From contig OZ218778.1 in NCBI GenBank assembly GCA_965112635.1, positions 2,720,001-2,784,000 of the forward strand: a stretch of DNA of 64,000 nt, given 5' to 3'. Below are positions 172-11,626 of the stretch, piece after piece (position 1 is the first letter of the stretch; each line of letters opens with the position of its first letter). A program made the translations under genes and the position numbers. Below the pieces are notes generated by a model. The model made no database searches and had not been told where the DNA came from. It saw only the letters and a list, made by a program, of their open reading frames with translations. This DNA comes from an uncultured bacterium (GTDB taxonomy: Bacteria > Oederibacteriota > Oederibacteriia > Oederibacteriales > Oederibacteriaceae).

Positions 172-3048
172 TCAACGAAGCACGGCGAATTTACCGATTA
201 CGCGTGCTTCCCGGGTGTTCCTTCTGGCCTGGATAGCATAATAATACATACCATTGGCCAAACGGTCATGATGCATATCCAGAAGATCGTAAGGCAGCGT
301 ATAAGTATATAGCGCCACCCCGTTTTCATATTCGATCTGGAGCAAAGGCGAATTGGCCGGGTCGTAGATCGAAAGGGACTGGACAAGACGTATAGAGGTC
401 GTATAGATCTTGAAAATCAATTGGTCCGGCACATCGGTCATCTTGATATAAACCTTCAACCCATTGCCATCCCGGACCGGGTTGGGATAAGGCACATGTT
501 TCATAATCCAAAGAGGCCCGCTGGCTGTCGGTGTGAACGTGGCTGTGTTGGTAAAGGTCATGCTGGAGGTAAGGGTACAACTCGGGGTCACGGTATTTGA
601 AGGAGTAAAAGAATAGGACGGGGTGAGGGTGCAGGTAAAAGTGAAAGTCTGGGTAAAAGTCGCTGTTTGTGTGGCTGTATTGGTATAGCTTGGGGTATTG
701 GTGATCGTGAATGTCTGGCTGGAGGTAAGGGTTTGGGTCGAGGTCATGGTCTGGCTGGCAGTCTGGGTCGCGGTCCCCGTGTAGGACTGGGTAAAAGTCT
801 GGGTAAAGGTCCGGGTCTGGCTGGCAGTCTGGGTCGCGGTTCCCGTGTAGGACTGGGTAAAAGTCTGGGTAAAAGTCCGGGTCTGGCTGAAAGTCATGGT
901 CTGGGTGGCAGTCTGGGTCGCCGTTCCCGTGTAGGACTGGGTAAAAGTCAGGCTGGAAGTCAGGGTCAGACTGGGAGTCAGGGTCTGAGTTGCCGTAAGC
1001 GTAAAAGTGGTTGTGGTGGTCACTGTCCCGGTCAGGGACGAGGTCAGGGTGCTGGTGGCCGTTTGGCTGGGGCCAGGCGTGAAAGTCTGGGTCGGCGTGG
1101 AGGTAGCAGTCCCCGTCATGGTCGAAGTTCTGGTCGGTGTCTGGGTGGCTGTTTGGGTGATTGTGCCGGTCGTCGTACAAGTACCGGTGGGTGTTCCGGT
1201 ATAGGTCGAGGTTGACGTCCGCGTATAGGTCATGGTCGGCGTGTAATTTTGCGGAGGGCATAAAGTGAGGTCATCCACCCAAATCGTATGGCTACCCATC
1301 TGGGTGGAGTCCAGGATGATACCTAGATCATAGATGTCGTTGAATAAAGGCATGGTGCCCCCGCTCGGGTGTGCAGTAAAAGAGGATGGCAGGTAAAAAG
1401 TAAATCTGGTCCATGCGTTGGTCGCTGTCTGTTGCGATGACCACGCCTGGTTAAAAAGCGGATAATCCCTTATCTGCACGCGAAATCTCTCTCCTCCCAC
1501 GCTCCCCTTGACCCAGATGGATAACTGGGTGTAGTTGGTCCAATTGGTCAGTGTTCCCAAAGAATTAAAAAATGACACCCATCCGTTTGGCTGCATATTC
1601 CAGGTGAGATTCATGGAATATCCCGCTCCGCCGTGATTATTGGCGCCATCATAGGTAGCGGTCCCCGTGGTGGTGGTATTGCTTGTGCTGTCATATCCGG
1701 AAGGGAGTATGGCGGTGATGCCGCCGCTGCTGGTCGGGTCCGTGCCGCCGTTATAGTCCGCGATTGTATCGAACGTTGAGCACGGAGTTGGATTAGGGGT
1801 CGGAGTCACAATAATTTCATCCGCCCCGATACAAGGCGGGTTTTGCCGCGGATGCAGGTAAATATCCTGGGTCACTTCGGGCAAACTCACTCCCTGCGCA
1901 ATGGCTCCCACTGCCTGGGCCGTCAGGTCCAGGTTGTTGGCCGCGGGATTGACCCAGTAATTCGCCGGGGTGCCCAGGTAATTGTTGCTGACAACCCCGG
2001 ACGTCAAACCCGAGGTGTCCAGTTGGCCGTCGATCAGGTTATTTTCGATATTTGTATTGGTGATCGTATTATAGGCAATGCAGCGGATACCCCTCGCCCC
2101 GTCATCCGGCCGGTAACAGCTGTTATTGTAAATTTTGCAGCCGTCCACCCAGCCCATTTCAATGCAGCAATCGACCGGGTTGGAGATGTAATTGTTCATG
2201 ACGGTCATATTCTGCCCGCTTATTTCACCGCAGCCGTAGAGCCCCAAACTGACCCCCCTGTCGCAATTTAAGATCTTGTTTCGTTGAAGAATGCAATTTT
2301 TACATCCCACCCAGAGTTGAAAGGCCGACCTCCCGCCTCCGTCGGCTCCTTTGATGTTCAAAAAAGTATTATCCTGGAAAGTCCAGCTATCCAAACGCAT
2401 CATATCAATGCCGGCGATATAGTCTCCGTTAAAGATCCAGCATGTGTTAGGGAGTTTGTTGTCCTCAAAGTAGCAGTTTTGCACCAGTCCGTACAAAGCG
2501 TGCGTATTGCCTGAGGTATCGGCAGTCCCTTTGATACAGCGGAATCCAAAATTGATGAACCGGCAGTTGAGTATCTCGATATCCTGGGGCGAGGAATAGG
2601 AATTCACTTTTATCCCGTAGCAGGCTTCGGTAAAGGTGATGGCCGAGATGGTCAGCGAGGTGCAAGTAGCAAAATCCGCGACCCACAGGCAGTCATTATT
2701 GCCTTCCCCCGGATGGGTTGAACAGGGCATTGAGCCATCATCAATAAAACCGATCCCCCGGATGATCACCTTGGTGGGGTCATTGGAAGCGCTGGTGAGA
2801 ACGACATTATTTGCGTTGTTGAACCTCAAGGGGCTGTTCTCGTTCAGCTGGTAGGTCCCGTCTGCCAGTTTGATGCAATCCCCTGGCTGGGCATTGGTTA
2901 CGGCGTTATACAAAGCGACCACATTAGCCACATTAACCGTATGCAGACAGGCTGCCTGGGCGGGAATAGCCAAATGAATGGCCGCGAGGACCAAGAGAAG
3001 TCCATAAAATGAAAAAAGAACCTTTCGGTATGCCCCTGTGTCTGACAA
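172..3048 (-). CDS. Secreted right-handed beta-helix (pectin-lyase-like) protein with CBM11/CIA30-like module, Thr/Ser stalk and T9SS type-A-like C-terminal domain
   Basis: Signal peptide ending AQA; PGDCIKLADGTY beta-helix start; QLSIWVKG...FRVQIRD...WVDDLTL CBM-like; ~240 aa T-x repeat; C-terminal YPNP...KIYT...LANGMYYY...KFAVLR; GAGGGAG RBS before TTG. Confidence 0.85.
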   Translation of the reverse strand: MSDTGAYRKVLFSFYGLLLVLAAIHLAIPAQAACLHTVNVANVVALYNAVTNAQPGDCIKLADGTYQLNENSPLRFNNANNVVLTSASNDPTKVIIRGIGFIDDGSMPCSTHPGEGNNDCLWVADFATCTSLTISAITFTEACYGIKVNSYSSPQDIEILNCRFINFGFRCIKGTADTSGNTHALYGLVQNCYFEDNKLPNTCWIFNGDYIAGIDMMRLDSWTFQDNTFLNIKGADGGGRSAFQLWVGCKNCILQRNKILNCDRGVSLGLYGCGEISGQNMTVMNNYISNPVDCCIEMGWVDGCKIYNNSCYRPDDGARGIRCIAYNTITNTNIENNLIDGQLDTSGLTSGVVSNNYLGTPANYWVNPAANNLDLTAQAVGAIAQGVSLPEVTQDIYLHPRQNPPCIGADEIIVTPTPNPTPCSTFDTIADYNGGTDPTSSGGITAILPSGYDSTSNTTTTGTATYDGANNHGGAGYSMNLTWNMQPNGWVSFFNSLGTLTNWTNYTQLSIWVKGSVGGERFRVQIRDYPLFNQAWSSQQTATNAWTRFTFYLPSSFTAHPSGGTMPLFNDIYDLGIILDSTQMGSHTIWVDDLTLCPPQNYTPTMTYTRTSTSTYTGTPTGTCTTTGTITQTATQTPTRTSTMTGTATSTPTQTFTPGPSQTATSTLTSSLTGTVTTTTTFTLTATQTLTPSLTLTSSLTFTQSYTGTATQTATQTMTFSQTRTFTQTFTQSYTGTATQTASQTRTFTQTFTQSYTGTATQTASQTMTSTQTLTSSQTFTITNTPSYTNTATQTATFTQTFTFTCTLTPSYSFTPSNTVTPSCTLTSSMTFTNTATFTPTASGPLWIMKHVPYPNPVRDGNGLKVYIKMTDVPDQLIFKIYTTSIRLVQSLSIYDPANSPLLQIEYENGVALYTYTLPYDLLDMHHDRLANGMYYYAIQARRNTREARVIGKFAVLR
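751..950. repeat. Intragenic 66-bp tandem repeat encoding TFTQTFTQSYTGTATQTASQT units
   Basis: Near-identical units start at 751 and 817, with a partial third copy at about 901-949. Confidence 0.8.
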
Positions 3049-3141
3049 CTTTTCTCCCTCGCCAAGTACTCTAAAGGCGCGTCAGTCGGCTAGCTCTCCC
3101 ATCATGGACTCGCGTCCACGATCGGCTTTTCGCTTGTTCTT
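3016..3141 (-). ncRNA. Candidate c-di-GMP-I (GEMM-I)-like riboswitch, copy 1
   Basis: Minus strand AAAAGCCG-ATCGTGGAC(GCGA)GTCCATGAT-GGGAGAGCTA...CTGAC/GTCAG...ACAGGGGCATACCGA; shares anchors with copy at 11541-11626; GNRA-capped P2. Confidence 0.6.
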
Positions 3142-3291
3142 GAATAATCTTCTTTAATTTGGTTGTTTTAGAACCCTGCCAGGTACTTTAAGTTAATTAT
3201 ACTATCCAAAATAAGATTTCCTACTAATAATTAGACAATTCCGGACTTTAAAAGTTCCCGTTGAAAGTTTTTTAATGGAAAAGTAAAGGGT

Positions 3292-4554
3292 TTAGGGGTT
3301 TGCGGGGGCTTGCTGGGAAGACGGCCCCGCGTTAAATTCACTGGCCCCGATATCCGGCGGGTCTTTTCTGGGATTGTGGTCTATATCCTCGGTCACCTCA
3401 GGCAAGGCGACCCCTTTGCCGATGGCTCCCTCGGCCTGGCTGGTCAAATGCAGGTCTCCGGCCCCGGGATTGACCCAGTAATTCGCCGTCGCATGGATCT
3501 CATTATTGCTGGTATCGCACTGGGAACCGGAGGTCTCCAGCCATTCGTTCATCAGGTTGTTCTTGATGCTCGTGTCCGTGACCGTGTTGTGACCGAGACA
3601 GGTGATCCCCGACCCACCCTCATCCGGCCGGTAACAGCTGTTGTTGTATATCTTGCAGCCGTCATTTCTGCACATTTCAATGGCGCTGTCTTTGTTCCCT
3701 GATATGAAATTATTGCGGACGACCTGGTTGTCCCCGTTCTCTTCCGTGCTGGCCGGCAGTCCCAGGGTGACCCCCCGGTCGCAACCCGTAATATGGTTCC
3801 GCTGGACGATGCAGTTCTGGCATCCCACCCAGATAAAAACAGCCGCGCGGGCCCCGCCATGGGCGCCCTTGATGTTCAGAAAAGTGTTGTCTTCGATGGT
3901 CCAGCTGTCCAAACGCATCATATCAATGCCAGCGATGTAATCTCCGTTGAAAACCCAGCAGGGAGGCGGAACTTTGTTGTCCTCAAAATAGCAGTCCCTG
4001 ATCAATCCGCGCATGGCATGGGCGTTGCCCCCCGTATCGGCCGTCCCCTTGATGCAGCGGTACCCCAAATTGATGAACCGGCAGCTGAGGATATCGATGT
4101 CCTGGGGTGAATTTTGCGAATACACCTTGATCCCGTAGCAGGCTTCGGTGAAAGTGATGGCCGAGACCGTGATGGATGAGCACACGGCGTTGTCCGCGAT
4201 CCAAAGGCAGTCGTTGTTTTCCTCTCCCCGGTGGGGTGAGCATGACTGAGAGCCGTCGTCCGTGAAACCGGTGCCCTGGATGATGACCTTGGTAGGATCG
4301 TGGGAGGCGCTGGTCAGGACAACACGGTTGACCCCATTGAACCGCAAGGGTCTGTTCTCGGTCAGATGGTAGGTGCCGTCAGCGAGCAGGATGCAGTCGC
4401 CGTCCTTGGCCCCCTTGACCGCGTCGTACAATGTGGTCACATCGGATACGTTGACGGTCTGGCCGCAGTCTGCCCCTATCCTCCCGGCTGGCAGCAGGGA
4501 AAAAAGGATAAGGGCTAACGAGATCACGCCAAATGTTTCAGCTGATTTCCGCAT
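3292..4554 (-). CDS. Secreted right-handed beta-helix protein, paralog of the N-terminal domain of 172..3048
   Basis: Signal peptide; long shared stretches (NNDCLW, SAITFTEACYGIKV, FNGDYIAGIDMMRLDSWT); lacks CBM, stalk and CTD. Confidence 0.85.
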   Translation of the reverse strand: MRKSAETFGVISLALILFSLLPAGRIGADCGQTVNVSDVTTLYDAVKGAKDGDCILLADGTYHLTENRPLRFNGVNRVVLTSASHDPTKVIIQGTGFTDDGSQSCSPHRGEENNDCLWIADNAVCSSITVSAITFTEACYGIKVYSQNSPQDIDILSCRFINLGYRCIKGTADTGGNAHAMRGLIRDCYFEDNKVPPPCWVFNGDYIAGIDMMRLDSWTIEDNTFLNIKGAHGGARAAVFIWVGCQNCIVQRNHITGCDRGVTLGLPASTEENGDNQVVRNNFISGNKDSAIEMCRNDGCKIYNNSCYRPDEGGSGITCLGHNTVTDTSIKNNLMNEWLETSGSQCDTSNNEIHATANYWVNPGAGDLHLTSQAEGAIGKGVALPEVTEDIDHNPRKDPPDIGASEFNAGPSSQQAPANP

Positions 4555-9945: not shown

Positions 9946-10210
9946 GTGGGTCCCCCACGGGCACAGCCCGTGGCTCCCACAAAACATTCAGCCCGCCTCC
10001 GGCGGACTGACCAAAGGAGTAACCTCCTTTGGAATCCTCTCGGAGAGGGTTGATTGGTCTGAATGACCAATCAACGGGCACATTCCTTTGTTCCTTATGA
10101 AGGAGTGCCCAGGATATAATTGTATGTACTATCGTTTTTTCATCCACGGGCAGAGCTCGCCTAGTCGGCGAAGCGACTGGCCCGTGGTCTTCGAAACGCT
10201 GATCCGATAA
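9946..10210 (-). repeat. Non-coding palindromic element (REP/PATE-like), copy B, inverted relative to copy A
   Basis: Same terminal hairpins (9955-9973; 10144-10187) and same core as 6045-6242, with extra internal hairpins at 10049-10075 and 10076-10110. Confidence 0.8.
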
Positions 10211-11505: not shown

Positions 11506-11533
11506 TTGACAAATGTTAAAGATTTTATAAAAT
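11506..11533 (+). promoter_or_regulatory. Sigma70-type promoter
   Basis: TTGACA (11506-11511), 16-bp spacer, TAAAAT (11528-11533); predicted TSS near 11540, at the start of the riboswitch-like motif. Confidence 0.7.
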
Positions 11534-11540
11534 TAACTCC

Positions 11541-11626
11541 TCATTGAAAAAGCCGACTCTGCTGAAAGGCTGAGTGGGAGAGCTATCCTCCCTGAAAGAC
11601 AGGGGAACAAGGGGCATACCGATGGA
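11541..11626 (+). ncRNA. Candidate c-di-GMP-I (GEMM-I)-like riboswitch, copy 2
   Basis: P1 TCATTG/CGATGG; AAAAGCCG-ACTCTGCT(GAAA)GGCTGAGT-GGGAGAGCTA; P3 CCCTG/CAGGG; ACAAGGGGCATACCGATGG 3' end resembles the Vc2 3' end GGGGTTACCGATGG. Confidence 0.65.

Follow-up and report, generated by a model that had tools for sequence, protein, structure and literature searches.

Can the 3' strand of a riboswitch aptamer also be the first codons of the gene that it controls? The question is raised by an RNA element at positions 3016-3141 of a stretch of 64,000 nucleotides (nt) from an uncultured bacterium of the phylum Oederibacteriota (positions 2,720,001 to 2,784,000 of contig OZ218778.1, assembly GCA_965112635.1; the whole stretch is called the window, and positions are those of the window unless another source is given). 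The element is read on the minus strand, lies at the start of a gene for a large secreted protein, and resembles the cyclic di-GMP (c-di-GMP) riboswitches of the c-di-GMP-I class (GEMM-I; Rfam RF01051). It is probably a functional member of a lineage-specific, strongly diverged c-di-GMP-I subfamily; in this copy a deletion behind an originally noncoding aptamer forced the start codon into the RNA, and binding of the ligand would turn the gene off.

The preliminary description of the window had reported two leaders with common sequence blocks; both are real, and they are an incomplete sample of a family of ten copies with three styles of expression platform. Blocks AAAAGCCGA, TGGGAGAGCTA and AGGGGCATACCGA occur in the same order at 3016-3141 (minus strand; the coordinates first given were correct) and at 11541-11626 (plus strand). 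The exact 11-mer GGGGCATACCGA and the exact 12-mer TGGGAGAGCTA each occur twice in the window, only at these two sites. When two mismatches were allowed, GGGGCATACCGA was found 4 times against 6.1 expected, no rarer than chance, and it is therefore the collinear combination of blocks that counts. In the own genome, 3 matches to the three-block pattern were obtained and none to its reversed control. A regular-expression scan of this genome gave 17 rows, from which nine compact elements were kept and 8 long coding-like stretches were dropped. The trimmed alignment of the nine yielded a covariance model, R1, of 92 positions and 18 pairs, which gave ten matches of 66.8-85.8 bits at E ≤ 1 in the 2,876,006-base genome. 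These are called copies A to J, with A at 3016-3141 and B at 11541-11626. Copy A is the third best of the ten (78.5 bits, match at 3023-3135), and copy J, the tenth (G000:C1:1816755-1816835, 66.8 bits), was outside the training set of R1. Each of the ten copies is oriented in sense to a gene, whose start it immediately precedes or overlaps.

The fold of the family is a P1/P2-GNRA/P3 three-way junction backed by covariation. Pairing statistics were calculated on 13 sequences, the ten own copies and three elements from relatives (another locus from a relative, a duplicate, was excluded). Standard pairs fill 93.0 % of the pair cells against 83.4 % in shuffles, with none of 500 shuffles reaching the observed value, and 10 of the 18 pairs change on both sides, which was matched in 1 of 500 shuffles; sliding the partners by 1-3 columns as a control left 35-50 % paired. 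The search for further covarying homologues that had been suggested at the outset thus returned a family. In helix 2, both-side changes occur in 7 of 10 pairs, P2a being CG in 11 sequences and GC in 2, and the loop is of the GNRA type in all 13 (GAAA in seven, GUAA in three, GCGA in two, GUGA in one). The early observation that the stems differ in sequence and still pair was confirmed in both P2 stems of the window: AUCGUGGAC/GUCCAUGAU with a GCGA loop in copy A and ACUCUGCU/GGCUGAGU with a GAAA loop in copy B. Helix 3 is 97.3 % paired, with pair 46-176 being GC in eight, GU in three and AU in two sequences, and pair 47-175 CG in ten and UA in three. A compensatory change in P3a is seen in copy J, which has AACU for AGCU and GGGGU-A-U for GGGGC-A-U (G-C to A-U); at this pair, G50-C, copy G has the G-U intermediate and one relative shares the A-U of copy J. 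The inner pairs of P1 are CG in 12 sequences and UG in one, followed by GC in all 13. The minimum free energy (MFE) fold of copy I is the full proposed junction, that of copy B is exactly this junction, and that of copy A retains P1, P2 and P3b.

In copy A the parts of the aptamer can be placed as follows, all on the minus strand. The outer ends of P1 are exactly 3141 and 3016, AAGAAC 3141-3136 pairing with GUUCUU 3021-3016; the 5' strand (3131-3141) continues through the loop AAG to the inner CG 3132-3131, partner of CG 3027-3026. J1/2 is AAAA followed by G 3126, the counterpart of G20. P2 (3098-3125), supported by covariation, consists of P2a (CC 3125-3124 with GG 3099-3098), a G/G 1x1 loop (3123, 3100), the 9-bp hairpin P2b (3122-3114 with 3109-3101) and the GCGA loop at 3113-3110. 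A 3097, the counterpart of A47, is followed by a G and then by P3 (3030-3095). The 5' strand of P3a, AGCU 3095-3092, two bulged bases and CC 3089-3088, pairs with GG 3036-3035, GGC 3034-3032 and U 3030, leaving A3031 bulged. P3b spans 3085-3042, with CUGAC 3085-3081 opposite GUCAG 3046-3042 and an inner helix of CGCC 3079-3076 and GGCG 3063-3060; ACACA and the GG-GGC-A-U of 3036-3030 come next. The 3' end reads A, C 3028, CG 3027-3026, AAAG and GUUCUU 3021-3016. C 3028 is the counterpart of C92, the Watson-Crick partner of G-beta, its position being taken from the RF01051 and RF03167 alignments. A U-rich tract abuts P1, and together with the P1 3' strand it forms GUUCUUUUUUCAUUUU (3006-3021).

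Judged from alignments with known members, the family is homologous to c-di-GMP-I, although it stays below the Rfam thresholds. At relatives' RF01051 loci, which score 31-69 bits with the Rfam model, R1 matched 10 of 19 at E ≤ 10 and 8 of 19 at E ≤ 0.01 (best 32.8 bits), over the full length and with identical coordinates. Two of the own copies, D and E, are near-canonical; copy D aligns over 1-87/87 of RF01051 and carries a GAAA loop and a receptor-like CCUAAA...UAUGG. Both have the unusual 3' core ACAGGAGCAUACCGA in common with the other eight copies (type 1), which links the two types. They also fix the register of the pocket, since they have an unambiguous GC/GC P2a followed by A and an internal loop GA/GG, so that the U-G-GG-A of type 1 maps onto A47. 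Read in this register, all 13 sequences keep G at position 20, A at 47 and C at 92, as the preliminary description had proposed for its two leaders when it recognized a GEMM-I-like layout. As described in the available parts of two structural papers, G20 contacts the Hoogsteen edge of one ligand guanine, C92 pairs with the other, and the backbone of A47 touches a ligand ribose (PMC6140456; PMC5888326). The own genome has 11 matches to PF00990 (GGDEF; best 1.5e-50), about ten genes, in keeping with a host that makes c-di-GMP. The genes downstream of the copies encode secreted or surface proteins and STAS regulators, and they fit the gene spectrum of GEMM riboswitches given in the portion of PMC7266159 available to us. 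With invariant G20, A47 and C92 and with GGDEF genes in the genome, the expected ligand is c-di-GMP, and most likely it has remained so throughout the family.

The copies differ in how the aptamer meets the gene. The sole Shine-Dalgarno (SD)-like sequence of B, I and J is the G-run in the 3' strand of P3a; the start codon, 7-8 nt further on, belongs to the 3' strand of P1, in the contexts CCG-AUG, CCG-GUGAUGAUG and CCG-GUG. The outer P1 helices are AUCAUCA/UGAUGAU in I and UCAUUG/CGAUGG in B. Because the SD is a strand of P3a and the start codon lies in P1, sensor and expression platform are one structure in these copies; folding of the aptamer would hide both signals, giving a translational OFF switch without a separate platform. 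Copy B (11541-11626, plus strand; R1 71.3 bits) shows the arrangement in full: P1 of UCAUUG 11541-11546 and CGAUGG 11620-11625, the G20 counterpart at 11552, P2 at 11553-11578 with GAAA at 11564-11567, A47 at 11579, P3 at 11581-11617 and C92 at 11619. The SD GGGG (11611-11614) is part of the P3a 3' strand, and the AUG (11622-11624) inside the P1 3' strand opens a reading frame of 295 aa. A sigma-70-like promoter, TTGACA-16-TAAAAT (11506-11533; a consensus match only, 11/12), would have transcription begin at or near the first base of P1. Copy I controls an open reading frame (ORF) of 1,996 aa (G000:C1:2652161-2658151) that has no Pfam match at E ≤ 0.01, a giant protein for which c-di-GMP-type control is predicted.

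In copies C, F, G, H and A, the outer P1 (AAAGAAC/GUUCUUU) is directly abutted by UUUUUU-N-UUUU(UU), and the genes behind G and H have strong SDs of their own further downstream. A U-tract directly 3' of P1 is present in five of the ten own copies and in all four elements from relatives. In the latter, P1 is either compensated (AAGAUA/UAUCUU against AAGAAC/GUUCUU) or an A-run/U-run, each followed by at least 7 U; the layout is kept, with compensatory P1 changes, between the own genome and a second family of the phylum. The ligand-stabilised P1 would probably be the stem of an intrinsic terminator at the U-tract in C, F, G and H and, ancestrally, in A. A frameshift near residue 100 divides the gene of copy C (G000:C1:212780 onward) into two ORFs (L001:1604-2269 and 1906-3075). 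In alignment these cover residues 23-99 and 103-463 of its tandem paralogue, an intact gene for 912 aa that lies 2.7 kb downstream behind copy F; both genes of the tandem have a riboswitch of their own.

Copies D and E, in a third style, lie about 150 nt upstream of genes for STAS-domain proteins. The gaps between aptamer and gene (L043:200-355, L044:200-340) have the conserved blocks UUUCUUUAAUUAC, CUGUUUCC, CCAAUUAGA and UCAAUCC in common; they resemble an expression platform used by both copies, or a further RNA element, more than coding sequence. Both the placement of SD and start codon within the aptamer and the P1 with its U-tract couple the ligand-bound fold to repression, and the family is probably an OFF switch. 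The translational OFF switch suggested for copy A in the preliminary description stands as a plausible proposal.

The gene of copy A (172-3048, minus strand) encodes a secreted protein of 958 aa with a right-handed beta-helix (PF13229, 1.7e-6) and a CBM_11 domain (PF03425, 1.8e-6). An in-frame stop stands at 3084-3082, and from there to the hydrophobic core of the signal peptide the only ATG, GTG or TTG is the TTG at 3048-3046, at the edge of the P3b 3' strand, its G being the first base of GUCAG 3046-3042. An SD-like GAGGGAG (3060-3054) lies 5 nt upstream in the internal loop of P3. The early report of a ribosome-binding site and start codon inside P3 with a coding 3' end was accurate: 33 nt of the motif (3048-3016), comprising the 3' strands of P3b, P3a and P1, read MSDTGAYRKVL, and the U-tract continues with FSFY. 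The 3' strands of P3a and P1 with the U-tract read as MSDTGAYRKVLFSFY, and GUUCUUUUUUCAUUUU is read as the codons V L F S F (Y). The conserved CGAAAG thereby gives the R-K of the n-region and the U-run the first hydrophobic residues of the signal peptide. A literature search for start codons and coding sequence within natural aptamers brought up unrelated papers only; no claim is made that such an overlap is unpublished.

How this overlap arose can be read from the paralogue behind copy G, to which the protein is 54 % identical over 411 aa. From the aptamer to the end of the U-tract the leaders of A and G correspond position by position, and right after the U-tract copy A has a gap of 44 nt (junction at 3000-3001, from the pairwise DNA alignment of the leaders). 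In G these 44 nt hold the rest of an AGGAGG SD, the start region and the n-region of the signal peptide. As copy A lacks them, initiation is forced to TTG 3048 inside P3. The protein alignment of A and G begins at residue 13 of A, within the hydrophobic core, and a start upstream of 3012 is therefore needed in A. The coding overlap is, by this comparison of paralogues, a derived state that resulted from the 44-nt deletion and not the design of the family. Copy A would first have been of the second style, with P1 and a U-tract, and would then have lost the SD remnant, start codon and n-region. Translation would now start from TTG 3048, served by the GAGGGAG in the P3 loop, and ligand binding would lock P3 and P1 over codons 1-11; termination at the U-tract may persist, the ancestral termination site now being inside the reading frame. 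By either route, high c-di-GMP would turn the secreted beta-helix/CBM11 protein OFF, a polarity that we consider more likely than not for copy A.

A more specific reading, which we hold only tentatively, makes the aptamer's own P1 and U-tract a ligand-gated intrinsic terminator without a separate platform. In copy A, the deletion would then have turned P3a, P1 and the U-tract into signal-peptide codons 1-15, one stretch of 33 nt serving as sensor strand, terminator strand and coding sequence. A still weaker addition to it would have the changes in the P2a region give the aptamer an affinity or specificity other than that of canonical c-di-GMP-I.

Several observations concern the surroundings of copy A. 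The gene upstream on the same strand (3292-4554, minus) also encodes a right-handed beta-helix (PF13229, 7.9e-9; weak NosD), so the riboswitch sits between two beta-helix genes. The paralogue behind G (G000:C1:2830004-2831338; L179, leader L045/L139) has no in-frame ATG, GTG or TTG before the signal-peptide core; its sole plausible start is an AUA 6 nt after a perfect AGGAGG, a nearby GTG overlapping the SD in another frame. Initiation at AUA, which is rare, would account for this, as would a frameshift or an error of assembly. Several secreted proteins have long Thr/Ser/Pro-rich linkers (172-500 in the window, the C-terminus of the 958-aa protein; L001:1100-1382) and finish with similar C-terminal domains, each of about 100 aa (PLWI..., PYPNP, ...LQIEY...), that have no Pfam name and may serve in sorting or anchoring. 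An apparent variant over 3048-3104 (one diverged DNA contig, in two contig sets) was rejected as a strain variant, since its differences match the leader of paralogue G and point to cross-mapping. Elsewhere in the window, one DNA contig of run X1 skips 79 nt at 10048-10128 and has 13 other letters instead, which suggests an indel variant between co-occurring strains in an intergenic or short-ORF region.

A number of results weigh against the interpretation of copy A as a c-di-GMP-I OFF switch and of the family as its kin. At gathering scores Rfam reported no family over the window, RF01051 included, and in the own genome at E ≤ 10 RF01051 matched one of the ten copies, D, at 26.1 bits (cut-off 35). 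The preliminary description had expected standard models to miss an element in which the AAA/GAC loop is replaced, and the strong RF01051 match that would have made it canonical is indeed absent: even a permissive Rfam search of 241 nt around copy A (2960-3200) gave nothing for this copy. If the GGG run is aligned in another register, position 47 becomes G instead of A. The shuffle test overstates the support for the fold, as the alignment was fitted to R1 and its rows are paralogues. Single-sequence folding z-scores are modest (-1.1 to -2.05), and the MFE folds of A, C and G swap P3a and the inner P1 for an AGC/GCU pairing. The outer P1 duplex of copy A (-5.9 kcal/mol) is, taken alone, no better than shuffles, and the same holds for those of B, D, E and J. 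A simple terminator scan did not call P1 and the U-tract; intrinsic terminators do not usually have such a stem, AU-rich beside the U-tract and enclosing a large multibranch structure. The SD of copy A lies in an internal loop and is itself unpaired, and sequestration in this copy therefore rests on the structured codons 1-11.

Some of these points lend themselves to other explanations. The altered ligand considered in the preliminary description would be 3'3'-cyclic GMP-AMP (3'3'-cGAMP), pGpG, c-di-AMP or another cyclic or linear dinucleotide, bound by the same fold with a pocket retuned by the remodelled P2a and loop, by G48 or by a G47 register. The best Rfam alignments of copy B and of a relative's element are indeed with RF03167 (c-di-GMP-I-GGC), which has G in the position-47 column; 11 of the 13 sequences have lost the AAA/GAC loop and carry the flipped pair beside the pocket, and rare GEMM-I variants have switched to c-AMP-GMP, as the accessible part of PMC7266159 has it. 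The RF03167 alignments, however, are full length at 17.9 bits (B) and 19.9 bits (the relative's element) against a cut-off of 59, and D and E fix the register to A47. Position 20 is G in all 13 sequences, where cGAMP-sensing members have A according to the available portion of PMC6140456. C92 is invariant, and the presence in the same genome of the near-canonical D and E with the same 3' core argues for one ligand. An altered ligand is thus not supported, and we regard it as rather unlikely. That the element is no ligand sensor at all, and instead a dispersed repeat or a protein-binding leader resembling GEMM-I, would agree with the occurrence of all ten high-scoring copies in one genome and with scores that reach no Rfam cut-off. 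Such a view is hard to reconcile with stems that change in sequence and keep their pairing, with the sense orientation of every copy at a gene start, with invariant pocket nucleotides and with reciprocal, full-length detection of genuine RF01051 members, and it is very improbable.

With regard to polarity, an ON switch could operate if a ligand-free alternative fold, for instance the AGC/GCU pairing extending P2, blocked expression and the ligand released it. An AGC(G)/GCU helix that competes with the inner P1 and P3a does appear in the MFE folds of A, C and G, and ON switches are known among GEMM-I-type RNAs, the cGAMP switches of Geobacter being an example. Against this, B, I and J have SD and start codon within P3a and P1 themselves, nine elements have a U-tract immediately behind P1, and neither an anti-SD nor a separate terminator/antiterminator pair was seen downstream; an ON switch is improbable. 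Copy A itself could also be crippled: the deletion would have destroyed the real initiation region, TTG 3048 and GAGGGAG would be fortuitous, and the aptamer would be a relic or would terminate transcription in a dying gene. The 44 nt lost did contain the SD remnant, start and n-region present in G, the frameshift in the sister gene of copy C shows that decay occurs among the paralogues, and an open frame of 11-27 codons with one TTG is by estimate not improbable by chance. Yet the frame of 958 codons is intact at the identity to G given above, the upstream extension supplies what a signal peptide needs (R-K and then a hydrophobic run), a good SD stands 5 nt before the TTG, and the aptamer ranks third among the ten by score. 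A dying gene is, for these reasons, a poor bet, and a functional copy A, repressed by c-di-GMP, is the reading retained here.

Beyond this genome the variant was found in few of the genomes searched. The closest relatives searched belong to the same phylum. R1 matched 4 of 150 genomes of the relatives set and 4 of 99 of the phylum set, the own genome counted in each; the other three positive genomes belong to one genus of family f11, with scores of 29.8-32.7 bits at loci not reported by RF01051. An exact-pattern scan (CGAAAAGCCG...GGGARAGYTA) of 185,579 species returned 28 stretches, of which three passed R1 at E ≤ 0.01, all in records of Candidatus Firestonebacteria. Two scans of metagenomes gave no match each. 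With GGGAGAGCT...GGRGCATACCG, 85 stretches were obtained from genome contigs and set aside as coding or chance by their flanks (judged by eye, without R1 scoring), about 30 of them being one conserved Clostridia gene. GGGNRRAGCT...GGRGCATACCG gave two foreign matches in 60 relatives (L016, L017), both in GC-rich coding-like sequence and rejected by eye; this pattern cannot match type 1, which is one base shorter. No orthologue of copy A was found in the searched genomes or metagenomes, and the pseudouridine synthase of the window, used as a query, found no close relative (best 38 % identity). The lineage-specific character proposed at first is in line with these few matches, confined among the searched genomes to the same phylum and Firestonebacteria. 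The variant thus appears restricted to this lineage among what was searched; divergent members elsewhere would escape exact patterns.

For a lineage that is uncultivated and was found in peat metagenomes, the ten regulated operons illustrate that curated covariance models can miss the whole genome complement of a well-known riboswitch class. Surveys of c-di-GMP regulons will undercount, since such variants are missed by the curated models, and the present alignment could seed an improved family model. The ten paralogues form a natural series of output designs on one sensor, with SD and start codon in the aptamer, with P1 and a U-tract, or with a distant platform. Copy A adds an example, dated by its paralogue, of a start codon that moved into an aptamer after a deletion, and in it the constraints of RNA structure and of signal-peptide coding fall on the same 33 nt.

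When compared with c-di-GMP-I, of which Vc2 of Vibrio cholerae is an example, the family is alike in the junction of P1, GNRA-capped P2 and P3, in an A-rich J1/2 that ends with G20, in a two-pair P2a followed by A47, in a P3 that starts with an A-U pair and in the 3' core ...GC(A)UACCGA with C92, followed by the two inner P1 pairs. It is also alike in the genes served (secreted, surface and signalling) and in the GGDEF proteins of the host. The differences lie around the pocket and in P3. Where canonical members have the pair G21-C46, eight of the ten own copies and the elements from relatives have it flipped to C-G. Eleven of the 13 sequences carry CC/GG or CU/GG as P2a, the exceptions being D and E with GC/GC. 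In place of the AAA/GAC internal loop there is a G/G mismatch in type 1 and GA/GG in D, E and the relatives; position 48 is often G; and an extra A stands between the C and U of the P3a 3' strand. The 11-nt tetraloop receptor is lacking, save for the receptor-like sequence in D, and the P3b stems of the eight type-1 copies are unrelated to it. A subset of known GEMM-I RNAs is also without this receptor, so its absence is compatible with membership. P3/P3b varies in length from about 20 to more than 100 nt.

The c-di-GMP-I-GGC model (RF03167), of the same clan as RF01051, is the only Rfam model that aligns over its full length to type-1 copies, although with the low scores given above and with A rather than G at position 47 in the register of D and E. 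This class reportedly goes back to a 2017 paper in PNAS (Proceedings of the National Academy of Sciences) on variant riboswitch classes. The part of PMC5737381 available to us contained no description of c-di-GMP-I-GGC/UAU variants that we could find. GEMM-Ib, which senses 3'3'-cGAMP (Geobacter Gs1761), is similar in being a sub-lineage of GEMM-I that departs from the parent consensus; it has A at the G20 position, according to the available portion of PMC6140456. This position is G without exception in the family described here. Riboswitches whose aptamer includes the ribosome-binding site are known, among them SAM-II, SAM-III/SMK box and preQ1-II. The likeness of B, I and J to these lies in the use of the SD as a strand of an aptamer helix (P3a), to which a start codon in P1 is added. 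The folds and ligands are other ones, and in the present family of paralogues this arrangement stands beside two further output styles. Copy A goes further, in that 33 nt of its aptamer are translated.

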